Positions 18,603 through 30,162 of a DNA stretch of 64,000 nucleotides are shown here, one piece after another. Position 1 is the first letter of the stretch. The number at the start of each line of letters is the position of its first letter. Below the pieces are notes generated by a model. It was given only the letters and a program-made list of their open reading frames with translations, ran no database searches and had not been told where the DNA came from. Source of the DNA: a plasmid; assembly GCF_053078305.1 (NCBI RefSeq), contig NZ_CP166875.1. One strand, 5' to 3'. A program made the position numbers and the translations under genes.

Positions 18603-20561
18603 ATGTCAGTAACAAAGTCTGAACCAAAATCTACCCGTAAAGCAAGCCGTAAACTTGCAAAAACGCAGGAAACTGTCCTGTCTGCCCTGCTGGCGCAGAC
18701 GGAGGAAGTGAGCGTGCCGCTGGCCTCACTGATTAAATCACCGCTGAATGTGCGCACGGTGCCGTATTCTGCGGAGTCCGTCAGTGAACTGGCTGATTCC
18801 ATTAAGGGAGTCGGCCTGCTGCAGAATCTGGTCGTGCATACCCTGCCTGGTGACCGTTACGGTGTCGCCGCAGGTGGTCGCCGACTGGCAGCACTCAACA
18901 TGCTGGCAGAGCGTGGCATCATTCCGGCTGACTGGCCTGTCTGTGTGAAGGTCATTCCGCAGGAACTGGCGACTGCCGCATCAATGACTGAAAACGGTCA
19001 TCGTCGGGATATGCACCCTGCCGAACAGATTGCCGGATTCCGTGCAATGGCGCAGGAAGGCAAAACACCTGCACAAATCGGTGATTTGCTGGGCTATTCA
19101 CCCCGCCACGTTCAGCGAATGCTGAAACTGGCAGACCTTGCACCTGTCATCCTTGATGCGCTGGCAGAAGACCGCATCACCACAGAGCACTGTCAGGCGC
19201 TGGCGCTGGAGAACGACACCGCGCGTCAGGTGCAGGTGTTTGAAGCAGCCTGCCAGTCGGGATGGGGTGGTAAACCGGATGTGCGGGTTATCCGCAACCT
19301 GATTACGGAAAGTGAAGTGGCGGTGGCGGGGAACAGTAAATTCCGCTTCGTGGGGGCTGATGCCTTCTCGCCAGACGAACTGCGCACCGATTTGTTCAGC
19401 GATGACGGGGACGGTTATGTCGACCGCGTGGCGCTCGATGCCGCCCTGCTGGAAAAACTCCAGGCTGTCGCTGAACACCTTCGGGAAGCCGAAGGCTGGG
19501 AATGGTGCGCCGGACGTATGGAGCCTGTCGGTTCCTGCCGTGAGGATGCCGGAACATACCGCAGCCTGCCGGAGCCGGAAGCGGTGCTGACGGAAGCTGA
19601 AGAAGAACGCCTGAACGAACTGATGACGCGCTACGACGCGCTGGAAAACCAGTGTGAGGAATCTGATCTGCTGGAAGCAGAAATGAAGCTGATGCGCTGC
19701 ATGGCGAAGGTCAGGGCGTGGACGCCGGAGATGCGTGCCGGAAGCGGTGTGGTGGTGTCCTGGCGTTATGGCAACGTGTGTGTCCAGCGTGGTGTGCAGT
19801 TGCGCAGCGAGGATGACGCGGCTGCCGACGCTGACCGCACGGAACAGGTGCAGGAGAAAGCGTCAGTGGAGGAAATCAGTCTGCCACTGCTGACGAAAAT
19901 GTCTTCCGAACGCACGCTGGCAGTCCAGGCGGCACTCATGCAGCAACCGGACAAATCTCTGGCACTGCTGGCATGGACGCTCTGCCTGAATGTGTTTGGC
20001 AGCGGAGCGTACAGTAAACCAGCACAAATCAGCCTGGAATGTAAACATTATTCGCTGACCAGCGATGCGCCATCGGGGAAGGACGGTGCCGCATTCATGG
20101 CGATGATGGCAGAAAAAGCCCGTCTTGCTGCCCTGTTACCGGAGGGATGGGCACGGGACATGACGACGTTCCTGTCACTCAGCCAGGACGTGCTGTTATC
20201 ACTGCTCAGTTTCTGCACCGCGTGCAGCATCCACGGCGTTCAGACCCGCGAGTATGGTCACACGTCACGCAGTCCGCTGGACTCGCTGGAGAGCGCCATC
20301 GGCTTTCACATGCGTGACTGGTGGCAGCCGACAAAAGCAAACTTCTTCGGTCACCTGAAAAAGCCGCAGATTATCGATGCCCTGAATGATGCCGGACTGT
20401 CCGGTGCCGCACGGGACGCGGAGAAGATGAAGAAAGGCGATGCCGCTGAACATGCAGAGTTCCACATGAAAGACAACCGCTGGGTGCCTGGCTGGATGGG
20501 TTCACCACGTCCACAGACGGATGCCACTGAACGCGCCGATAACCTGGCTGATGCCGCCTGA
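18603..20561 (+). CDS. ParB-like nuclease-domain protein, 652 aa (leading-region protein)
   Basis: N-terminal region (SLIKSPLNVRTV...LLQNLVVH...GGRRLAAL) resembles the ParB/Srx N-terminal domain; position between ssb and psiB as in F-like plasmids. Confidence 0.8.
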   Translation: MSVTKSEPKSTRKASRKLAKTQETVLSALLAQTEEVSVPLASLIKSPLNVRTVPYSAESVSELADSIKGVGLLQNLVVHTLPGDRYGVAAGGRRLAALNMLAERGIIPADWPVCVKVIPQELATAASMTENGHRRDMHPAEQIAGFRAMAQEGKTPAQIGDLLGYSPRHVQRMLKLADLAPVILDALAEDRITTEHCQALALENDTARQVQVFEAACQSGWGGKPDVRVIRNLITESEVAVAGNSKFRFVGADAFSPDELRTDLFSDDGDGYVDRVALDAALLEKLQAVAEHLREAEGWEWCAGRMEPVGSCREDAGTYRSLPEPEAVLTEAEEERLNELMTRYDALENQCEESDLLEAEMKLMRCMAKVRAWTPEMRAGSGVVVSWRYGNVCVQRGVQLRSEDDAAADADRTEQVQEKASVEEISLPLLTKMSSERTLAVQAALMQQPDKSLALLAWTLCLNVFGSGAYSKPAQISLECKHYSLTSDAPSGKDGAAFMAMMAEKARLAALLPEGWARDMTTFLSLSQDVLLSLLSFCTACSIHGVQTREYGHTSRSPLDSLESAIGFHMRDWWQPTKANFFGHLKKPQIIDALNDAGLSGAARDAEKMKKGDAAEHAEFHMKDNRWVPGWMGSPRPQTDATERADNLADAA

Positions 20562-20615
20562 TGAACAACCACACCGCCCCGCCGGAGACGGGGCGGCAGC
20601 AAGGGAGATACCGTG

Positions 20616-21050
20616 ATGAAAACTGAACTGACCCTGAATGTATTACAGACCATGAGCGCACAGGAATATGAAGATATCCGGGCTGCCGGAAGTGATGAAC
20701 GCCGTGAGCTGACACACGCCGTGATGCGGGAACTGGATGCGCCGGACAACTGGACGATGAATGGCGAGTACGGCAGCGAGTTCGGCGGCTTTTTCCCCGT
20801 CCAGGTCCGTTTCACGCCTGCCCACGAACGTTTTCACCTGGCGTTATGTTCACCGGGCGATGTCTCTCAGGTCTGGGTGCTGGTTCTGGTGAATGCCGGT
20901 GGTGAGCCGTTTGCGGTGGTTCAGGTGCAGCGGCGGTTTGCACCGGAAGCTGTCAGCCATTCACTGGCACTGGCGGCATCACTGGATGAACAGGGATACA
21001 GCGTCAGTGACATCATCCATATCCTGATGGCGGAAGGAGGTCAGGCATGA
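20616..21050 (+). CDS. psiB: Plasmid SOS inhibition protein B
   Basis: Translation [46 protein letters not shown]... recognised as PsiB (144 aa). Confidence 0.93.
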
Positions 21051-21766
21051 GCGCACGTTCACAGGCACTGGTTCCTCTCAGCACAGAGCAACAGGCCGCA
21101 TGGCGGGCGGTGGCGGAGACAGAAAAACGCCGCCACCAGGGTAACACGCTGGCGGAATATCCGTATGCGGGGGCGTTTTTCCGCTGTCTGAACGGAAGCC
21201 GCAGGATTTCGCTGTCTGACCTGCGATTTTTCATGCCGTCCCTGACCGCAGAAGAACTGCGCGGCAACCGTTCTCAGTGGCTGTATGCCGTCGATGTGCT
21301 GATTGAAACACAGGGCGAGGTCTGCCTCCTTCCCCTTCCCGGTGATGCAGCAGAGCGGTTGTTCCCGTCGGTGCGGTTCCGTGTCAGGGAACGCAGTCGC
21401 CATAAATCCGTGCTGGTCATGCAGAAGTACAGCCGCCAGCAGGCACGGGAGGCAGAGCAGAAAGCCCGTGCGTACCAGACGCTGGTCGCTCAGGCTGAAA
21501 TCGAACTGGCGTTCCATTCACCGGAAACAGTCGGAAGCTGGTATGCACGCTGGAGTGACCGGGTGGCAGAGCATGACCTGGAAACCCTGTTCTGGCAGTG
21601 GGGTGAGCGTTTTCCGTCACTGGCCGGGATGGAACGCTGGCAGTGGCAGGATATGCCATTCTGGCAGGTCATCGCAGAGGCAGGTATGGCAGCAAGGGAG
21701 GCGGGTCACGCTGTCCGTGAGATGGAGCGGTGGATGGTGCCGAACAAACTCCGGGAGGCGGCGTGA
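21047..21766 (+). CDS. psiA: Plasmid SOS inhibition protein A
   Basis: 239-aa ORF overlapping the psiB stop, the canonical psiB-psiA arrangement. Confidence 0.88.
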
Positions 21767-22077
21767 AGTGGCGTTACTCATTGCGCTGGAAACTGCCTTC
21801 TCCCTGTCCTGGCGAGCATGAACTGGTTTCAGAAGTGGTGGAGGCGGGGCAGCCTGCACCGGCATCCGTTATGTCACGCTGGGTTGCCGGAGCAGGGTAT
21901 GCGGTCTGTCTGGATTTTATTTCTGACCGCCCGGTGCGCCGCTGGAGCGAAGAACGTAAGGCTGCGGTACGGCGGCGGAATCTGGAGAAACGTATCAACA
22001 GGCATGCACCACTGTTTGCGGATGAACTGATTGCCCGTGAACTGGCTGAACGACCGGATTATTTTCAGGGAAAGTGA
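21730..22077 (+). CDS. Hypothetical protein (up to 115 aa) overlapping the psiA 3' end
   Basis: ORF only; true start uncertain (possibly GTG near 21763). Confidence 0.4.
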   Translation: MDGAEQTPGGGVKWRYSLRWKLPSPCPGEHELVSEVVEAGQPAPASVMSRWVAGAGYAVCLDFISDRPVRRWSEERKAAVRRRNLEKRINRHAPLFADELIARELAERPDYFQGK

Positions 22078-22189
22078 GTGTGGTCAGTACGCAGGTATAT
22101 GGGCTATGATGTGCCCGGCGCTTGAGGCTTTCTGCCTCATGACGTGAAGGTGGTTTGTTATCCTGTCGTGTGGCAGAAGGACAAAAGCC

Positions 22190-22260
22190 CCGTAGTTAAT
22201 TTTTCATTAACCCACGAGGCCTCTGCATGTCTAGTCCACGTCAGTATGGCCTCTTACCGT
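22190..22260 (-). ncRNA. sok: Putative Sok-type antisense RNA of the hok/sok (flm) system
   Basis: Inferred from position: antisense to the mok/hok leader, as in F flmB/hok-sok; exact ends not determinable from sequence alone. Confidence 0.4.
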
Positions 22261-22442
22261 GCAAATTGCAAGGAGGAGTAAACCATGAAACTACCGGGAA
22301 ACGCCCTTATCTGGTGCGTATTAATCGTGTGCTGCACGTTGTTGATATTCACACTCCTGACCCGGAATCGCCTGTGCGAAGTCCGGCTGAAGGACGGATA
22401 CAGGGAAGTTACGGCAACAATGGCTTACGAATCCGGCGGTAA
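22227..22442 (+). CDS. mok: Mok-like overlapping reading frame (modulator of killing) of the hok/sok locus
   Basis: 71-codon ORF in a different frame overlapping hok. Confidence 0.5.
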
Positions 22443-22446
22443 GTAG
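22285..22446 (+). CDS. hok: Hok/FlmA-type small membrane toxin (53 aa)
   Basis: Translation [53 protein letters not shown], typical Hok family sequence. Confidence 0.9.
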
Positions 22447-22726
22447 CAACCTGGAGGCGGGCGCAGGCCCGCCTTTTCAGGGCTGATGCTGGTCTGACTG
22501 CACTGAAGCGCCTTTATAAAGGGGCTGCTGGTTCGCCGGTGGCCCCTTTCTCCTTGCTGGCATTGTAGCAGCATGAACAACCAGACTGTCAGGAAGGCCA
22601 CTTCCCTCCGGGAACGGGAATGAACGTGCGCCTGCGGCGCTCGTTCTTTTCCCCCGCCTTCTCTGTTTATGGCCAGTTGTCAGAAATGACATTACCTTTC
22701 CCGTGATTATTCTCTTTTTCTTCCTG

Positions 22727-23357
22727 CTCTGATTCTGACTACTGCAGTGTTGTCCTGTCTGCCGGGCGCACCTTCGGCTCCCGGCTGCCTGGCGGCATCC
22801 GGTCGTCAGGCCCGACTCCGACAGGCAGCTGCTGGCGCACCTGCCAGTCTCCGCCGAACCCGCTGGCGCGGTTTCGGGCTGCCGCTACGGTCCGATGCGT
22901 GAAAACCCCGGGCTTGCAGCGACCGTTCCGGTCGCGCCGCCTCTGTCGCGCCGTGGCCTGCGCTCCCGGCATCCCGGCAAAAAGACGCCGGGATGTAAGG
23001 CGCAACGCCGTTTCGCAAACCGCGCTTCACGTCGTTGCGGCGGGTCCCTGCCCGTTGTTCTGTCCGGTGCCATTCACCTGTTTAAGCCCCTGTCGCCGGG
23101 GGCTGATACAGCCACAACCTGCCGCACTGACTGTCCAGGGTAAATGAACAGCCCACAAAATTTTTTACCCAAAACCCGGTAAAAAATTTTGCGTTCTGCC
23201 CAGGACAGGTGCGTCAGGCCGTGGCAGTGATGCCCCATGCGGCGAAGGTTCTCAAACAGGTGATGGTGAATACCGGAGGGAACAAAAGGCAGGTCCCCGC
23301 AAAACGTCAAAACCGCGGCTCCCGAAACTCAACAGATGATGGGGGCTGAAAACATCA
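22727..23357 (+). repeat. Frpo/ssi-like repeat element, copy 3
   Basis: Near-identical to copy 2; ends in the same conserved leader immediately upstream of the RBS of the 23373 ORF. Confidence 0.85.
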
Positions 23358-23372
23358 GATACAGGAGGAAAC

Positions 23373-23675
23373 ATGAGCGCATTTTCTTTTAACACCGCTT
23401 ATCAGCCAACAGGCGATCAGCAGAAAGACGCAATCGCACAAATCGACATCATGCAGAATCGTGCTGTTCAGGCAAATCTTGCATACCAGAGCAGCCTGGA
23501 TGCGGAAACGCTATTGAAACAGTTATGGCAAATCAATGATGAACTGGGGGAACTGTTGGATAGCGTGGAAAATCACACGCCAGTTATCAGAAAAAAAGCC
23601 AGTGATTTGAGCGCACTGATGATGCTTTTCAGCCAACAGGCCGGTCAGCCTATGACTATGTTGTTGATTTGTTAA
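23373..23675 (+). CDS. Hypothetical protein, 100 aa, downstream of repeat copy 3
   Basis: ORF with RBS AGGAGGAAAC 5 nt upstream of the ATG. Confidence 0.6.
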   Translation: MSAFSFNTAYQPTGDQQKDAIAQIDIMQNRAVQANLAYQSSLDAETLLKQLWQINDELGELLDSVENHTPVIRKKASDLSALMMLFSQQAGQPMTMLLIC

Positions 23676-23715
23676 TGATAATCAGGGGCAGGAAATTAAG
23701 CGAAAGATGCTCTGC

Positions 23716-23810
23716 CCCGGGTTTGCAGCGACCGGAACGGTCACTCCACCCTTGTCGCGCTGTGGCCTGCGGCGGCTCCCGAAACTCAACCGATGATGGG
23801 GGCTGAAAAC
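23716..23810 (+). repeat. Truncated Frpo-like element (copy 4, internally deleted)
   Basis: About 95 bp joining an early segment of the repeat (cccgggtttgcagcgaccggaacggtc...cttgtcgcgc.gtggcctgcg) directly to the conserved 3' leader (gcggctcccgaaactcaaccgatgatgggggctgaaaac). Confidence 0.7.
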
Positions 23811-23830
23811 CAGAGAGAGGAGAAAGCAGG

Positions 23831-24118
23831 ATGAGTACCCGAAATATCCACGTTAACACCGCGTCGTACACGCTTCTTGTTGCCGGGAAGAAAAAAAACA
23901 CCGGGGAAGAGTGGGACGTCCTGGAATTCAGCAGCCTGACTGAGCTGAAAAAATATCGCAAAAGCCACCCGGAAAAGATGGCCTTCAGCTATAGCTACGC
24001 GCTCAGCCGGGGTGTGGATACGCAGTTCCGCCATATCAACATTGCGGAAGCCGATCACTTCAAACAGTTCCTGCGTCAGATTAAGCGTACCGGCCTCGAT
24101 ATCCGGGCGATCTGCTGA
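23831..24118 (+). CDS. Hypothetical protein, 95 aa
   Basis: ORF with RBS GAGAGGAGAAAG upstream, directly after truncated repeat copy 4. Confidence 0.6.
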   Translation: MSTRNIHVNTASYTLLVAGKKKNTGEEWDVLEFSSLTELKKYRKSHPEKMAFSYSYALSRGVDTQFRHINIAEADHFKQFLRQIKRTGLDIRAIC

Positions 24119-24236
24119 CCGGATGTGATGAATATCCCTCCTGATTGTTGCAATCTTGTTAATGGAGACCGGGAGGGATGATATTAAGCGGAAAAATTTT
24201 TTATTAAATTTATTCTTTCATAAAGGAGTAGCTGTT

Positions 24237-25058
24237 ATGCGATTAGCTTCCCGTTTTGGTCGGTATAATTCCATTCGCCGTGAGCGTCCTTTAACGGATG
24301 ATGAATTAATGCAGTTTGTGCCTTCGGTATTTTCCGGTGATAAACATGAATCCCGGAGTGAGCGTTATACATATATTCCAACAATCAATATCATCAATAA
24401 GTTACGTGAAGAAGGTTTCCAGCCGTTCTTTGCATGTCAGAGTCGGGTTCGGGATTTGGGACGCCGCGAATACAGTAAACATATGTTACGTCTTCGCAGG
24501 GAAGGGCATATTAACGGGCAGGAAGTTCCTGAAATTATCCTGCTTAATTCACATGATGGTTCATCCAGTTATCAGATGATCCCCGGAATTTTTCGTTTTG
24601 TCTGCACAAATGGTCTGGTGTGCGGAAATAATTTTGGCGAAATCCGCGTTCCACATAAAGGCGATATTGTCGGGCAGGTTATTGAGGGAGCGTATGAAGT
24701 GCTCGGTGTCTTTGATAAGGTCACTGAAAATATGGAGGCGATGAAAGAAATACATCTTAACAGTGACGAGCAACATTTATTTGGCAGAGCTGCACTGATG
24801 GTCAGGTATGAAGATGAAAATAAAACACCAGTGACGCCTGAACAAATAATTACTCCCCGTCGTTTGGAGGATAAACAGAACGATCTCTGGACAACCTGGC
24901 AGCGGGTTCAGGAGAATATGATAAAAGGTGGACTGTCGGGGCGAAGTGCCTCCGGTAAAAATACCAGGACAAGAGGCATTACGGGTATTGATGGTGATAT
25001 CCGAATCAACAAAGCATTATGGATGATTGCCGAACAGTTCAGGGAGTGGAAGTCATGA
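24237..25058 (+). CDS. Hypothetical leading-region protein, about 273 aa (possibly DUF932-like)
   Basis: ORF 24156..25058; likely start MRLASRFGRYNS at 24237 with RBS AAAGGAG upstream. Confidence 0.65.
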   Translation: MRLASRFGRYNSIRRERPLTDDELMQFVPSVFSGDKHESRSERYTYIPTINIINKLREEGFQPFFACQSRVRDLGRREYSKHMLRLRREGHINGQEVPEIILLNSHDGSSSYQMIPGIFRFVCTNGLVCGNNFGEIRVPHKGDIVGQVIEGAYEVLGVFDKVTENMEAMKEIHLNSDEQHLFGRAALMVRYEDENKTPVTPEQIITPRRLEDKQNDLWTTWQRVQENMIKGGLSGRSASGKNTRTRGITGIDGDIRINKALWMIAEQFREWKS

Positions 25059-25355
25059 TAATATAAGTAAAGCCCCGAAAATTTTTTCGGGGCTTTACTT
25101 ATATTATCATTATGCGGCATTGATATGTCGTCTGAGATGCCTCAATTTCATCAACTGGCTTTTCGGTAGTCTGTAAATATTGTGCCCGCGAAAAATGGTC
25201 TGGCAGGAGGCTGCGCAGTTACCGGATATATATAAGATGGGTTCCCGCTTTGCGGGGCTTCGGCCAGTCAGCATTATCACTCATATGATATTTTTGTGTG
25301 TGGCCTTCCATGCCGCGTTTGCGGCATAACCGGTTTTTTTAAAATGTATATCAAA

Positions 25356-25865
25356 TTAATTCTTCTGCGAGCTGTTCATTTTTGAAAGCGGTTTTTCAGA
25401 TGCACGAAGCTGGATCCCCTTGCTGTTTTTTATCCCGCTGTAAATCCGGTAAACATCTGATGCATAGGCAAGACGCCGCTGGTTCTGACGTTCGGTTTTC
25501 CTGAATCCTGCGTTGTATGCACCAACAGCCTCCCAGGAGACTCCCCATTTTTTAAAGGCTATAGCCAGATAATAAGCACCGGTATAAATGTTCAGACAGG
25601 GATCTGCTGTCAGATGTTCCGGTTTAATTCCGTAGCGGGCCAGTTCGTTAAAATGCTGGGAATCTACCTGCATAAGTCCACTGCCATATCCCGTAACCGG
25701 ATTAATACCGATGGCATTAACCCGGTTACGGGATTCTTTCCATGATATTGCTCTCAGCAAGTCAGGGTCAATTTTATAATCTCTGCCAGCCAGATCAAAG
25801 CAATCACCAGCCTTGCAGGTCACATTTATAAACATCAGGCAGATCGTCAGAAGCCATTTTCTCAT
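25356..25865 (-). CDS. Lytic transglycosylase (orf169 / gene X-like, SLT domain), 169 aa
   Basis: Translation from [11 protein letters not shown]...; contains [14 protein letters not shown] and GLMQV motifs of soluble lytic transglycosylases; adjacent to oriT as in F. Confidence 0.88.
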
Positions 25866-25919
25866 TTTCTCACCTCTGGTGACGTCATCAGGAAATAATT
25901 TAACCCACTCCACAAAAAG

Positions 25920-26275
25920 GCTCAACAGGTTGGTGGTTCTCACCACCAAAAGCACCACACACTACGCAAAAACAAGTTTTTGCTGATTTTCGTTTAATAT
26001 CATTGAGTTGTATTTGCGGATTTATATTGTTTAAATCTGATTTATTTAAAACAGCGTCGTTAACGCCGCTACAGCAACGCGCAGACACCGCTTTTTAGGG
26101 GTGGTACTGACTATTTTTATAAAAAACATTATTTTATATTAGGGGTGCTGCTAGCGGCGCGGTGTATTTTTTTATAGGATACCGCCAGGGGCGCTGCTAG
26201 CGGTGCGTCCCTGTTTGCATTATGAACTCTGGTGTTTCTAAATTAACTTTATTTTATGTTCAAAAAAGGTAATTT
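25920..26275. other. oriT: Origin of transfer (oriT) with nic region and TraM-binding repeats
   Basis: Minus-strand reads TTTGCGTAGTGTGTGGTGCTTTTGGTGGTGAGAACCACCAA, an F/R100-like nic sequence with adjacent inverted repeat (about 25930-25975); repeated GCTGCTAGCGG motifs at about 26141-26160 and 26196-26210 resemble TraM binding sites. Confidence 0.8.
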
Positions 26276-26278
26276 CTA

Positions 26279-26662
26279 ATGGCTAAGGTGAACCTGTATA
26301 TCAGCAATGATGCTTATGAAAAAATAAATGCGATTATTGAGAAGCGTCGACAGGAAGGGGCAAGAGAAAAAGATGTCAGTTTTTCAGCAACAGCTTCAAT
26401 GCTTCTTGAACTGGGGCTTCGTGTATATGAAGCTCAGATGGAGCGTAAAGAGTCCGCGTTTAATCAGATTGAGTTTAATAAATTACTTCTTGAATGCGTT
26501 GTAAAAACACAATCATCAGTAGCGAAAATTTTGGGTATTGAGTCTCTCAGTCCTCATGTTTCCGGGAATCCAAAGTTTGAATATGCCAATATGGTTGAAG
26601 ATATCCGGGAGAAGGTGTCATCTGAGATGGAACGATTTTTTCCAAAAAATGATGAGGAATAA
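26279..26662 (+). CDS. traM: Relaxosome accessory protein TraM
   Basis: 127-aa translation MAKVNLYISNDAYEKINAIIEKRRQEGAREKDVSFSATASMLLELGLRVYEAQ recognised as TraM. Confidence 0.93.
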   Translation: MAKVNLYISNDAYEKINAIIEKRRQEGAREKDVSFSATASMLLELGLRVYEAQMERKESAFNQIEFNKLLLECVVKTQSSVAKILGIESLSPHVSGNPKFEYANMVEDIREKVSSEMERFFPKNDEE

Positions 26663-26779: not shown

Positions 26780-26860
26780 AACTTGAAAATCGCCGATGCA
26801 GGGAGGGACTAGCTCCCTGCATCGACTGTCCATAGAATCCTTTGAGGAGGTTCCTATGTG
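26780..26860 (-). ncRNA. finP: Putative FinP antisense RNA (complementary to the traJ leader)
   Basis: Perfect stem GATGCAGGGAG...CTCCCTGCATC at 26795-26823 and a second hairpin spanning the traJ RBS; position matches FinP in F-like plasmids; exact ends inferred. Confidence 0.5.
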
Positions 26861-27056
26861 TGCGATGGATACTAGAGAAAGAGCACTCATACGTCAATCA
26901 GGCCTGCCGGAAATTATTTTATCCGCAAAATATCCAGTCTGTGTCCGCACAGAGTCAGGAAAATTCATAGACTCAAACTCTGTTTTTTTACACTCAATAA
27001 AGTGTCAGAATTGTGATTCTGAAATAGTAAGCGTCAACGGAGCACCGTATTGACGC

Positions 27057-28670
27057 TTATTTATTGGTGAGTACTACGTTCCATGGCAGGAGTTCATCAA
27101 CTCGGTTGGAAGGCCATTCTGGCAGTACGCTCAGGATATGGCGCAGATACGCTTCCGGATCGATACCGTTCAGACGGCAGGTGCCGATCAGCCCGTACAA
27201 CAGTGCTCCACGCTCGCCGCCGTGATCGCTGCCAAAGAACATAAAGTTTTTCTTTCCGAGACAGACTGCACGAAGCGCTCTTTCCGCAGCATTATTATCC
27301 GCCTCCGCCAGACCGTCATCACTGTAATAACAGAGGGCATCCCACTGATTCAGTACATAGCTGAACGCTTCGCCCAGTCTGGATTTTTTCGACAGCGTAC
27401 CATTCTTCTCCACCATCCATTCATGCAGTGACGTCAGTAACACTTTGCTTCGCTGCTGCCTGACGGCAAGACGCTCTGACTCCGGTAATCCCCGTATTTC
27501 ATCCTCGATGGCGTACAGTTCACTGATTCGCTTCAGGGCTTCTTCTGCCGTCGCACTTTTGCTGCTGATGTATACATCGTGGATTTTTCGCCGGGCATGG
27601 GCCCAGCACGCAACTTCTGTCAGTGCACCACCTTCACGTTCTGCACTGAACAGCCGATCGTAACCGCTGAACGCATCCGCCTGCAGGATACCCCGGAAGG
27701 GACGAAGGTGTTGTACCGGATGTTTTCCCTGCCTGTCTGGTGAGTAGGCGAACCAGACCGCCGGTGGCTCTGATGAGCCCGCATTCCGGTCATCCCGGAC
27801 ATACGTCCAGATGCGTCCTGTTTTTGCCTTTTTTCTGCCCGCTGCCAGCACTTTTACTGGTGTGTCGTCAGTGTGAACCTTGCGGGTGTTCATCACGTAA
27901 CGGTACAGGGTATCATTCAGCAGAGTCATTAACTGACAACATGCGTCAACCCAGTTGGAGAGTAATGCCCGGCTCAGTTCGATGCCCTGGCGGGCAAAGA
28001 TTTCACTCTGACGATACAGTGGCAGGTGTTCGCAGTATTTTCCCGTTAACACGCGGGCAAGTAATCCGGAGCCCGCGATGCCGCGCTCTATCGGGCGGGA
28101 CGGCGCTGGCGCTTCAACTATACAGTCACATTTTGTACAGGCTTTTTTTACCCGAACAGTGCGGATCACTTTCAGGGCGCTACTCACCAGTTCCAGCTGC
28201 TCAGCACTGACTTCCCCCAGATAATCCAGCTCACTGCCACACTCCGGGCAACAACTTTCTTCAGGCTCCAGACGGTGTATTTCACGGGGAAGATGTGCCG
28301 GTAACGGACGACGATGACGTGACTGTCGCAACTGGCGGGGAACCTGCGGGTCATCCTCACGCCCACTGTAACGATCGCTTTCCTGTTCGCGTTGTTTCAG
28401 TTGGGCCTCAGCCTGTTCAACCTCACGCTGCAGTTTTTCAGAACGGGTACCGAACAACATCCGGCGCAGTTTTTCTATCTGGGCCCTCAGATGTTCTATT
28501 TCCCGCTCCTCCTCTTCGATCTTTTCCTCGGCACGTGCCAGTGCAGAGCGCAGGAAGGCCTCCGTCTCTTCAACCAGACTCAGTTGCTGATCTTTCTGAC
28601 GGAGGGCTTCAGCCTGCTCAGAGAGCAGCCTTTCCAGCTCAGTGATACGAATGAGGTATTTCCGACTCAT
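27057..28670 (-). CDS. IS66-family transposase TnpC (orf3), 537 aa
   Basis: Large ORF with N-terminal coiled-coil/leucine zipper and a central cysteine-rich segment (CPECGSEL, CTKCDC) typical of IS66 transposases. Confidence 0.88.
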   Translation of the reverse strand: MSRKYLIRITELERLLSEQAEALRQKDQQLSLVEETEAFLRSALARAEEKIEEEEREIEHLRAQIEKLRRMLFGTRSEKLQREVEQAEAQLKQREQESDRYSGREDDPQVPRQLRQSRHRRPLPAHLPREIHRLEPEESCCPECGSELDYLGEVSAEQLELVSSALKVIRTVRVKKACTKCDCIVEAPAPSRPIERGIAGSGLLARVLTGKYCEHLPLYRQSEIFARQGIELSRALLSNWVDACCQLMTLLNDTLYRYVMNTRKVHTDDTPVKVLAAGRKKAKTGRIWTYVRDDRNAGSSEPPAVWFAYSPDRQGKHPVQHLRPFRGILQADAFSGYDRLFSAEREGGALTEVACWAHARRKIHDVYISSKSATAEEALKRISELYAIEDEIRGLPESERLAVRQQRSKVLLTSLHEWMVEKNGTLSKKSRLGEAFSYVLNQWDALCYYSDDGLAEADNNAAERALRAVCLGKKNFMFFGSDHGGERGALLYGLIGTCRLNGIDPEAYLRHILSVLPEWPSNRVDELLPWNVVLTNK

Positions 28671-28700
28671 GACCGTTTTTATAATCCGGCCATGACATTT

Positions 28701-29051
28701 TTACAACATTGTCAGTGCATTAAGGCGGGATGTTTTGGGCTGACGCCAGTCCAGTTTATCGAGGAGCATTGCCAGCTGCGAGCGGGTAATGGATACCTTA
28801 CCGTCACGCACCGCAGGCCAGATAAACTGGCCTTCCTCCAGACGTTTGGTGAACAGGCACAGACCATCAGCATCAGCCCACAGAATTTTAATCGTGTCAC
28901 CCCGTCGGCCGCGAAAGATAAACAGGTGACCGGAGAAGGGGTTCTCATCCAGCACATGTTGTACCTGTTCTCCCAGACCGTTGAAGGATTTACGCATATC
29001 AGTAACGCCGGCAACCAGCCAGATTCGAGTGCCTGATGGGAGCGAGATCAT
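28701..29051 (-). CDS. IS66-family accessory protein TnpB (orf2), 116 aa
   Basis: Middle ORF overlapping orf1 (ATGA), typical IS66 organisation. Confidence 0.8.
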   Translation of the reverse strand: MISLPSGTRIWLVAGVTDMRKSFNGLGEQVQHVLDENPFSGHLFIFRGRRGDTIKILWADADGLCLFTKRLEEGQFIWPAVRDGKVSITRSQLAMLLDKLDWRQPKTSRLNALTML

Positions 29052-29473
29052 CGTCCCCTCCCGGTCAGTTCACGGATCAACACCGTGAGCAGCTCTGGTG
29101 AAGGATTTTCCAGCGTCATGTTACCGTGGCGGAACTCAACTTTACAGGAACTGGCACTGACTGTGCTTTGTGAAGGAGTGGATAAAAGCGGAGTAAGAGC
29201 CGCCACAGGCTCTTTCTGCTCATCAGGCGTTATCTCAACAGGTAATAATTCAACGCCAGCGCCAGAAGAGGTTGTTACCGGAAGACGCCGCGATATACGC
29301 CCTTCGTTCTGCCAGAGCCTGAGCCATTTGAACAGGAGGTTATCATTGATATCGTGTTCCCGGGCAATACGGGCAACAGAGGCTCCTGGTTGTGAAGCCA
29401 GTTTAACCATTTGAAGTTTAAACTCATTTGAAAATGATCTGCGGGGTTCTGAGGATAATATTTTCTGTTCCAT
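29048..29473 (-). CDS. IS66-family accessory protein TnpA (orf1), 141 aa
   Basis: First of three IS-internal ORFs; HTH-like N-terminus. Confidence 0.8.
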   Translation of the reverse strand: MEQKILSSEPRRSFSNEFKLQMVKLASQPGASVARIAREHDINDNLLFKWLRLWQNEGRISRRLPVTTSSGAGVELLPVEITPDEQKEPVAALTPLLSTPSQSTVSASSCKVEFRHGNMTLENPSPELLTVLIRELTGRGR

Positions 29474-30162
29474 AACAGGTGTCCACTAGTTGAAAAGGTG
29501 GGCACCTACGTTACCAATACTGGCTTAATGGCTACATACGGCGGTCAGTTTACGCTTACCTGAAATATGGTTTTCTGGTATTGATATTGATACGCAAATT
29601 TTATTTCAGACTGCTGAAGTTGATGCTTTTTCGTCCTCAAATGGAGTGAGCATTATTAATGGTGTAATATTGAATGATGTATCATGGGATGTGGTGATTG
29701 AAAGTACCGAAGTGAATGACTTGAATTTGTTTGTCTGGAGATTTTTCGAAAGATACGTAGTTAGTAGCTTTTTTATAAAGGGCAAGGAGTTTTGTTGTGA
29801 ATCTGACAAATATCGCTTTAATAAGATAATACCGTATCTTTTGGGTTATAGTCATGAGTATTCTGCTCAGAGAATGGATGTCTCTATTGACCAGTCTAAA
29901 AAAATATTTATGAATTTTAAAAAACACTATGGTTTCTCAGACAGGGATGAGTGGTTGCGATATGCTATAATTTCTGATGTGTTATTTTATCTATATCAAT
30001 ACTTCGCTAGTAATATTAACAACCTTCACCGCAAAGAAATGTAAGTATTCCCGGCACTAAAAGTGCCGGTTTTTGTTAACGTAATTTACTCTTTTGTTGT
30101 TTGTTTTGTGTGCGTCTTATGTAAATATTTTGACTAAATCTCTTTTATGTACGGGAGGTGTG

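Follow-up and report, generated by a model that had tools for sequence, protein, structure and literature searches.

The genes of the leading region decide if a resistance plasmid becomes established in a new host. In F, this region enters the recipient 5' end first, and Masai and Arai are said to have described there, in 1997, an operon made up of the promoter Frpo1 and the genes ygeA and ygeB. The subject here is the matching locus on another plasmid, contig NZ_CP166875.1 (assembly GCF_053078305.1), of which a stretch of 64,000 nucleotides (nt) was analysed (the window; all positions refer to it). Between hok/sok and orf169 it carries three open reading frames (ORFs) of 100, 95 and 273 amino acids, called ORF100, ORF95 and ORF273 below, together with copies of a long repeat that resembles Frpo. 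Frpo is a single-stranded DNA (ssDNA) promoter of F, and in vivo both Frpo1 and Frpo2 are necessary for making the downstream proteins before the complementary strand is synthesised (PMC9849209). A YgeA-sfGFP fusion in F is produced early and transiently from ssDNA, before the conversion to double strand; none is detected in donors, and deletion of Frpo1 abolishes its production (PMC9849209). Sequencing of transconjugant RNA shows the Frpo1 and Frpo2 genes to be enriched (PMC12672017). The Frpo1 genes also matter more to the yield of transconjugants than ssb or Frpo2 do, and deletion of ygeA lowers this yield: the transconjugant frequency is 92.6% for wild-type F, 25% for delta-Frpo1, 3.9% for delta-ygeA, 14.5% for delta-Frpo1 delta-ygeA and 32.7% for delta-Frpo1 delta-ygeAB, while ygeB alone could not be deleted (PMC9849209).

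The locus in the window is very probably the oriT-proximal "Frpo1" operon of an F-like leading region. Two of its three genes can be named. ORF95 (23831-24118, plus strand, ATG start, Shine-Dalgarno sequence GAGGAG) is identical to F YgeA in 94 of 95 residues, and ORF273 (24237-25058, plus strand, ATG 8 nt after AAGGAG) to F YgeB in 266 of 273; the DNA across both genes is collinear with positions 13974-15582 of F at 95% identity. By these alignments ORF95 is F ygeA and ORF273 is F ygeB. A mechanical ORF search reports a longer frame for the latter (24156-25058, TTG start, 300 amino acids), but the gene really begins with the ATG at 24237, in agreement with RefSeq on a 99% identical plasmid. 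An earlier model-generated note on this DNA, the sequence-only reading, had listed the three frames as unknown genes between hok/sok and orf169. The frames themselves stand, each with a good ribosome-binding site, and searches of plasmid records find all three conserved in related plasmids, which that reading had made a test of its proposal. As an example, in NZ_CP045714 (IncFIA/FIC, MOBF), which is 99% identical to the window, all three are annotated as coding sequences. The word unknown no longer fits ORF95 and ORF273, which are named F genes, ygeA with a published expression pattern and conjugation phenotype, but it remains right for biochemical function. Homology and fold searches, which had been suggested as a check, matched these two ORFs to ygeA and ygeB and led to no family of known function for any of the three proteins.

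The promoter repeat is about 640 bp long, and a repeat search finds three full copies in the window (13737-14379, 17070-17713 and 22713-23356) with pairwise identities of 95-98%. The third of these, copy 3, lies on the minus strand, has a GC content of 0.615, and is 90.3% identical to F Frpo1 over 474 nt and 95.2% identical to F Frpo2 over 455 nt. Its transferred strand folds at -145.2 kcal/mol, compared with -88.3 +/- 5.3 kcal/mol for shuffled sequences (z -10.8), and an arm-by-arm layout puts the long imperfect hairpin at about 22963-23321 on the minus strand, with a core of about 360 nt. From gene order and strands, with the polarity taken from F, copy 3 stands inside the leading region, upstream of genes that are templated by the transferred strand. 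Repeat family, homology and fold identify copy 3 as a full homologue of Frpo1 and Frpo2, that is, as an ssDNA promoter repeat of the Frpo/ssi class-1 type. The leader at the 3' end of the repeat, GCGGCTCCCGAAACTCAAC.GATGATGGGGGCTGAAAAC, reaches the start codons of ssb, ORF100 and ORF95, so the two small ORFs do lie directly behind it, as had been noticed from the letters alone. Early, transfer-coupled expression had been proposed on the strength of this shared leader, and the proposal is now supported by the homology of copy 3 to Frpo1 and Frpo2, by the hairpin on the transferred strand, and by the reporter and RNA data on F (PMC9849209, PMC12672017). Homology, fold, gene order and conservation are observed directly on this DNA and its relatives; the promoter activity of copy 3 is predicted by analogy with F, as are the early expression and the phenotype of ygeA.

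Which strand is transferred is inferred from three points: the origin of transfer (oriT) lies between orf169 and traM, the leading region enters 5' end first, and ygfA/orf169 has the opposite orientation, as reported by Couturier et al. 2023 (PMC9849209). Together they make the minus strand of the window the transferred one. This strand would enter the recipient with its 5' end first, starting from oriT, and after about 3.3 kb had entered, copy 3 could fold on the single strand into its long imperfect hairpin, which the host RNA polymerase would take as a promoter. Transcription would then run toward oriT through ORF100, ygeA and ygeB and end at a perfect palindromic hairpin with a 26-bp stem (25056-25110, not assigned to a strand; the palindrome as a whole, 56 nt, is 25055-25110) that was found as an inverted self-match and overlaps the stop codon of ORF273. 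The RNA of this hairpin folds at -41.9 kcal/mol (z -9.0), and it probably terminates transcription in both directions, that of the operon and that of the convergent orf169. Synthesis of the complementary strand would destroy the promoter hairpin and switch the operon off, so that the three proteins would be made only transiently, in new transconjugants. No intrinsic terminator was found between the three ORFs, and most likely ORF100, ygeA and ygeB form one operon that is driven by copy 3 and ended by the hairpin at 25056-25110.

Some observations weigh against this scheme. A stem GGGGCAG...CTGCCCC (23685-23718) directly follows ORF100, and although it has no U-tract it could attenuate read-through into ygeA. 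Consensus scans for -35 and -10 boxes on the transferred strand, by itself and over six aligned copies, including a diverged one from Klebsiella, gave only weak matches, none of them both near consensus and conserved across the six; a TTGAC(G/T) at the base of the stem is conserved across the copies, but has no conserved -10 partner. It is also worth noting that traJ is split in this plasmid, which is probably not self-transmissible without help; if it does not transfer alone, the operon would never be induced.

What sets the window apart from F is the way the genes are put together. The first approximately 50 nt of the leader of the DUF932 gene (DUF932 being the family of ygeB; leader at 24133-24190) are repeated right after ORF100, and the repeated part then breaks into the remnant of a further Frpo. 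The duplicated partial leader (23657-23706, plus strand) was recognised as a recombination scar by alignment with the ORF98-DUF932 and ygeA-ygeB intergenic regions, and it changes the last codons of ORF100, which ends in ...PMTMLLIC instead of ...PMISPV. On either side of this point the sequence resembles different plasmids: a type-B plasmid matches 22902-23501 at 96% identity, and F matches 23772-25381 at 95%. Of 72,556 plasmid records, only 71 contain the whole junction (23600-23900). F-like plasmids show this slot in four layouts, namely Frpo-ygeA-DUF932, which is that of F and of about 2,800 records, Frpo-ORF98/100-DUF932, a deleted Frpo followed by ygeA and DUF932 as in plasmid pGE3, and the Frpo-ORF100-remnant-ygeA-DUF932 order of the window. 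Because the duplicated leader breaks into the Frpo remnant, the arrangement in the window is read as a recombinant hybrid of the Frpo-ygeA-DUF932 and Frpo-ORF98/100-DUF932 lineages.

The DUF932 gene is 97-98% identical in all four layouts. Outside this group, the Klebsiella plasmid pKP57-mcr8 (NZ_CP088130, 2186-4184) has a diverged Frpo (ssDNA fold z -11) that is followed directly, without a small ORF, by a DUF932 gene of 73% identity and then by a DUF5983 gene. A Cronobacter plasmid contig (WUGH01000015) contains a 666-nt direct repeat, 96.5% identical between its copies at 3394-4056 and 6479-7140, which spans an upstream hairpin region plus the first 18 or so codons of, in one copy, a ygeA homologue and, in the other, a 97-amino-acid ORF adjoining DUF932; over part of this repeat the similarity to positions 22771-22897 of the window is 83%. 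On these comparisons the slot has one constant gene, DUF932, and the small ORFs upstream of it are exchangeable cassettes on repeated promoter-leader modules. A further and tentative idea, which we consider rather unlikely to hold as a whole, is that the ssDNA promoter, the leader and the first codons serve as portable blocks of homology by which early cassettes (ygeA, ORF100, the Cronobacter 97-amino-acid ORF, or none) are swapped in front of a constant DUF932 effector. If this were true, homologous recombination would bring about an integron-like shuffling that tunes a plasmid's gene expression during the first minutes after it reaches a new host, the small proteins might determine what DUF932 acts on or how active it is, and hairpin-deleted remnants such as 23715-23813 would be scars of cassette exchange.

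A different relation between the small genes and DUF932 would be that of cognate partners, with YgeA or ORF100 holding YgeB in check as an antagonist, adaptor or antitoxin-like protein in a two-component module. This is suggested by the F data, in which deletion of ygeA alone (3.9%) is worse than deletion of Frpo1 and ygeA (14.5%) or of Frpo1 and ygeAB (32.7%) and ygeB cannot be deleted by itself (PMC9849209), and by rough counts of about 2,800 records with ygeA and about 1,700 with an ORF100-family gene against about 4,130 DUF932 genes with an identity of 90% or more, which fit nearly every F-like DUF932 having one or the other upstream. However, the near-identity of DUF932 whichever small ORF precedes it leaves no partner-specific co-variation, and the genes also occur apart: the Klebsiella plasmid has no small ORF, in Cronobacter plasmids 3 kb separate DUF932 from the ygeA homologue, which has a repeat of its own in front, Pantoea has a ygeA homologue with no DUF932 nearby, and an ORF100 homologue on an IncX-like plasmid has no DUF932 neighbour. 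YgeA and ORF100 are moreover unrelated in a profile comparison. Neither the obligate adjacency nor the co-variation expected of toxin-antitoxin or effector-partner pairs is seen for YgeA/ORF100 and DUF932, and the lack of co-variation and the separate occurrence of the genes make a partnership of this kind unlikely.

The remnant in front of ygeA bears on how the second and third gene are transcribed. The sequence-only reading had counted this truncated fourth repeat as a driver of ORF95 and ORF273, and this is the part of it that finds no support. Repeat search, homology and fold agree that the remnant (23715-23813, no strand assigned) consists of 57 nt of 5' flank (corresponding to 22906-22962) joined directly to 42 nt of 3' leader (corresponding to 23315-23356), and both pieces match the Frpo of another plasmid far beyond chance (E 8e-20 and 3e-14). 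The whole central hairpin is gone, about 352 nt corresponding to 22963-23314, or about 351 nt in F (13623-13973). The long stable stem-loop on the transferred strand that marks the Frpo/ssi class-1 type is absent: the 155-nt intergenic stretch around the remnant folds at -23 kcal/mol, no better than shuffled sequences (z -0.69; 46 of 200 shuffles are equally stable). With the hairpin lost and such a fold, the fourth repeat is probably not a promoter and would keep only a flank and the leader with the ribosome-binding site of ygeA. The same deletion junction (TGGCCTGCG joined to GCGGCTCCCG) is present in pGE3 (NZ_CP012377), where the layout is otherwise of the F type and nothing but the remnant (2498-2611) separates hok from ygeA.

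One may still ask if the remnant works as a promoter, perhaps a weaker one, of the single-strand or the conventional kind, with ORF95 and ORF273 as a transcription unit of their own. It does retain the basal flank and leader common to all copies, it stands alone in front of ygeA in pGE3, and the -35/-10 positions in Frpo are not fixed, which leaves room for a promoter in the retained base. This is nevertheless improbable, since the missing central part includes one strand of nearly all stem pairs, the fold is indistinguishable from that of shuffles, and a consensus scan found no sigma-70-like promoter in the remnant or elsewhere between the three ORFs. Among the plasmids examined, only pGE3 has nothing else than the remnant upstream, and there the DUF932 gene (3024-3845) is frameshifted around codon 167; this fits a loss of expression, suggestively so, as a single case. 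The preferred reading is thus that of one operon, in which, because the fourth repeat has lost its promoter hairpin, ygeA and ygeB would depend on read-through from copy 3 and the remnant would supply only the leader and Shine-Dalgarno sequence of ygeA.

ORF100 (23373-23675, plus strand, ATG start, Shine-Dalgarno sequence AGGAGG 6 nt upstream) is absent from the leading region of F in a sequence comparison, and it has no match in Pfam, NCBIfam or PADLOC. Judged by eye from its sequence, it is probably a small helical protein that belongs to no assigned family. A PHROG match to a "transcriptional regulator" (E 0.0019) was weak and is not trusted, and a profile search for distant relatives returned enterobacterial plasmid proteins only. 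The possibility that ORF100 and YgeA are remote homologues sharing one slot was rejected on the profile comparison mentioned above. Members of the family are found by tblastn in 1,783 plasmid records, mostly as a 98-amino-acid allele with 69% protein identity that lies between Frpo and DUF932, in the layout that has no ygeA. The first 43 codons are nearly identical in DNA to this allele (synonymous divergence, dS, 0.06) and continuous with the promoter, so that codons and promoter together look like a recombination tract. Codons 44-98 are diverged (dS about 1.5), and here the ratio of nonsynonymous to synonymous change (dN/dS) is 0.24. A more distant homologue is found on the IncX-like MOBP plasmid NZ_LR025103 (3400-3773), 52% identical in the alignment and 54% by tblastn; it shares the conserved motifs PTGDQQKDAI and ENHTP, has an ordinary promoter (TTGCAA-N17-TATTAT) and a terminator-like hairpin after the gene, and lies near hicAB and the taxC relaxase gene. 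By the selection on its 3' half, the motifs kept in the IncX-like homologue and the number of records, ORF100 is a real gene. It is very improbable that the frame is open merely by chance, in a scar that recombination left behind the repeat: the missing database matches, the many truncated or frameshifted versions in databases and the 43 codons that travel with the repeat could be read that way, but the alleles agree in frame and length despite the large divergence of their 3' halves, the Shine-Dalgarno sequence is strong, and the widespread family includes a distant member with a conventional promoter of its own. As a separate observation, many database versions of ORF100 are only 55-80 amino acids long (protein clusters P0054, P0034 and P0046, one of them on 311 contigs), and frequent breakage of the gene, or miscalling, may lie behind this.

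ORF273 matches the full length of Pfam PF06067 (DUF932; E 5.1e-52, model positions 1-227 of 227, residues 36-262) and also phrog_12094 (E 1.9e-138). The DUF932 family counts 5,564 cluster representatives and has invariant residues P29, H82, C123, N125, H140, E226 and G231 as well as many conserved arginines. The AlphaFold2 model of ORF273 is excellent (predicted local distance difference test, pLDDT, 94.5), and a structure search of AFDB50 with it found family members only; PDB sequence and profile searches gave nothing for the proteins and no solved structural relative of DUF932. For YgeA, an alignment of the family shows the invariant motifs EEWDV.EF and ADHFKQF, the AlphaFold2 model is of low confidence (pLDDT 61) and too poor for a structure search, and there was nothing in Pfam, NCBIfam, PHROGs or PADLOC. 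No protein of the three matched the curated defence models of PADLOC, no informative match to anti-defence or defence proteins came from PHROG or NCBIfam, and in the literature on DUF932, yfjQ/yafZ/yubP and orf95/orf273 no functional data were found. On the invariant His, Cys, Asn, His and Glu residues and the many arginines, DUF932 may be guessed to be an early-acting enzyme or a nucleic-acid-binding establishment factor, probably one of the two, and YgeA and ORF100 might be small early proteins that, independently of it, modulate the host or host defences. Our best guess for all three is early establishment or host-modulating factors.

The surroundings are those of the leading region of an IncF plasmid by gene order and synteny, ssb, a ParB-like gene, psiB and psiA, and hok/sok coming before the three genes, and orf169 and traM after them. 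The features are ssb at 17730-18251, the ParB-like gene at 18603-20561, psiB and psiA at 20613-21766, the sok RNA at 22116-22287 (95 bits, the sole match in an Rfam scan of 13000-26500), the Hok ORF at 22285-22446, SLT/orf169 at 25356-25958 on the minus strand, convergent with ORF273, and traM at 26279. The gene traJ is interrupted at 27027-29559 by a 2,533-bp element of the IS66 family, leaving pieces at 26856-27026 and 29562-30044; the element has three minus-strand ORFs of 141, 116 and 537 amino acids and an 8-bp target duplication, and the flanks of the insertion are 99.9-100% identical to an intact plasmid. Further upstream, the first full Frpo copy heads a cassette (13737-16847) absent from F, with ORFs of 76, 453 and 187 amino acids; on the related plasmid L001 the matching genes carry the annotations DUF3560 protein and class I S-adenosylmethionine (SAM) methyltransferase. 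Just upstream of copy 2 is a perfect hexanucleotide tandem repeat, CTGCTA x 6.8 (17027-17067), which yields artefactual plus-strand ORFs of poly-Leu and Ala-Thr.

Earlier publications already describe the promoter, where the operon lies, and two of the three genes with their early expression. In the literature searched we did not find ORF100, as a gene or as a family, nor the pattern of one, the other or both small ORFs before DUF932, nor a natural Frpo with its hairpin deleted. The Frpo1 genes are important in F, yet YgeA and DUF932 have no known activity, and a constant DUF932 gene with interchangeable small ORFs and a natural hairpin deletion offers ready natural variants for dissecting the role of each part. 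The locus is otherwise ordinary and does not bring to light a system of a new kind.

Among known relatives, the E. coli K-12 prophage proteins YfjQ and YafZ, which we take to be DUF932 (PF06067)/UPF0380 proteins, resemble ORF273 in having the same full-length domain, a size of about 273 amino acids and a place on mobile elements. AFDB matches of the DUF932 model bear names such as "CP4-57 prophage protein" and "F plasmid protein 32-like", and a 48% identical relative stands beside parA, parB and topoisomerase genes of a likely integrative element. The searches of the PDB and the literature gave no known function or solved structure for these relatives, so no mechanism can be drawn from them. 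Similar in organisation are ssi1-3 of the IncI1 plasmids ColIb-P9 and pESBL ("class 1"; Wen et al. 2025, PMC12672017), dispersed hairpin-promoter repeats that each head a zygotically induced leading-region operon; they belong to another plasmid group, have other genes downstream, and are likened here by description, not by sequence comparison. The plasmids with the Frpo-ORF98-DUF932 layout, such as NZ_CP043945 (IncFIA) and NZ_CP095611 (IncFIA/IncFIC), share with the window a full Frpo, an ORF100-family gene and the same DUF932, and Frpo plus the first 129 nt of the small ORF are 96% identical. In contrast to the window they have no ygeA and no Frpo remnant, and most records of the layout carry the other 3' allele, although the window-type allele also occurs. 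Also among the closest systems is the Frpo1-ygeA-ygeB operon of F, which has the same position between hok/flm and orf169/ygfA and a promoter of the same family (90% identity), and which shares both genes (protein identity 99% and 97%), equally oriented on the transferred strand. The window differs from F in its extra ORF100 after the full promoter, in having ygeA behind a hairpin-deleted remnant only, and in a third full Frpo copy (13737-14379) before the DUF3560/methyltransferase cassette, which F lacks. The addition made here is a modest one, the hybrid arrangement of a system that is itself already known.

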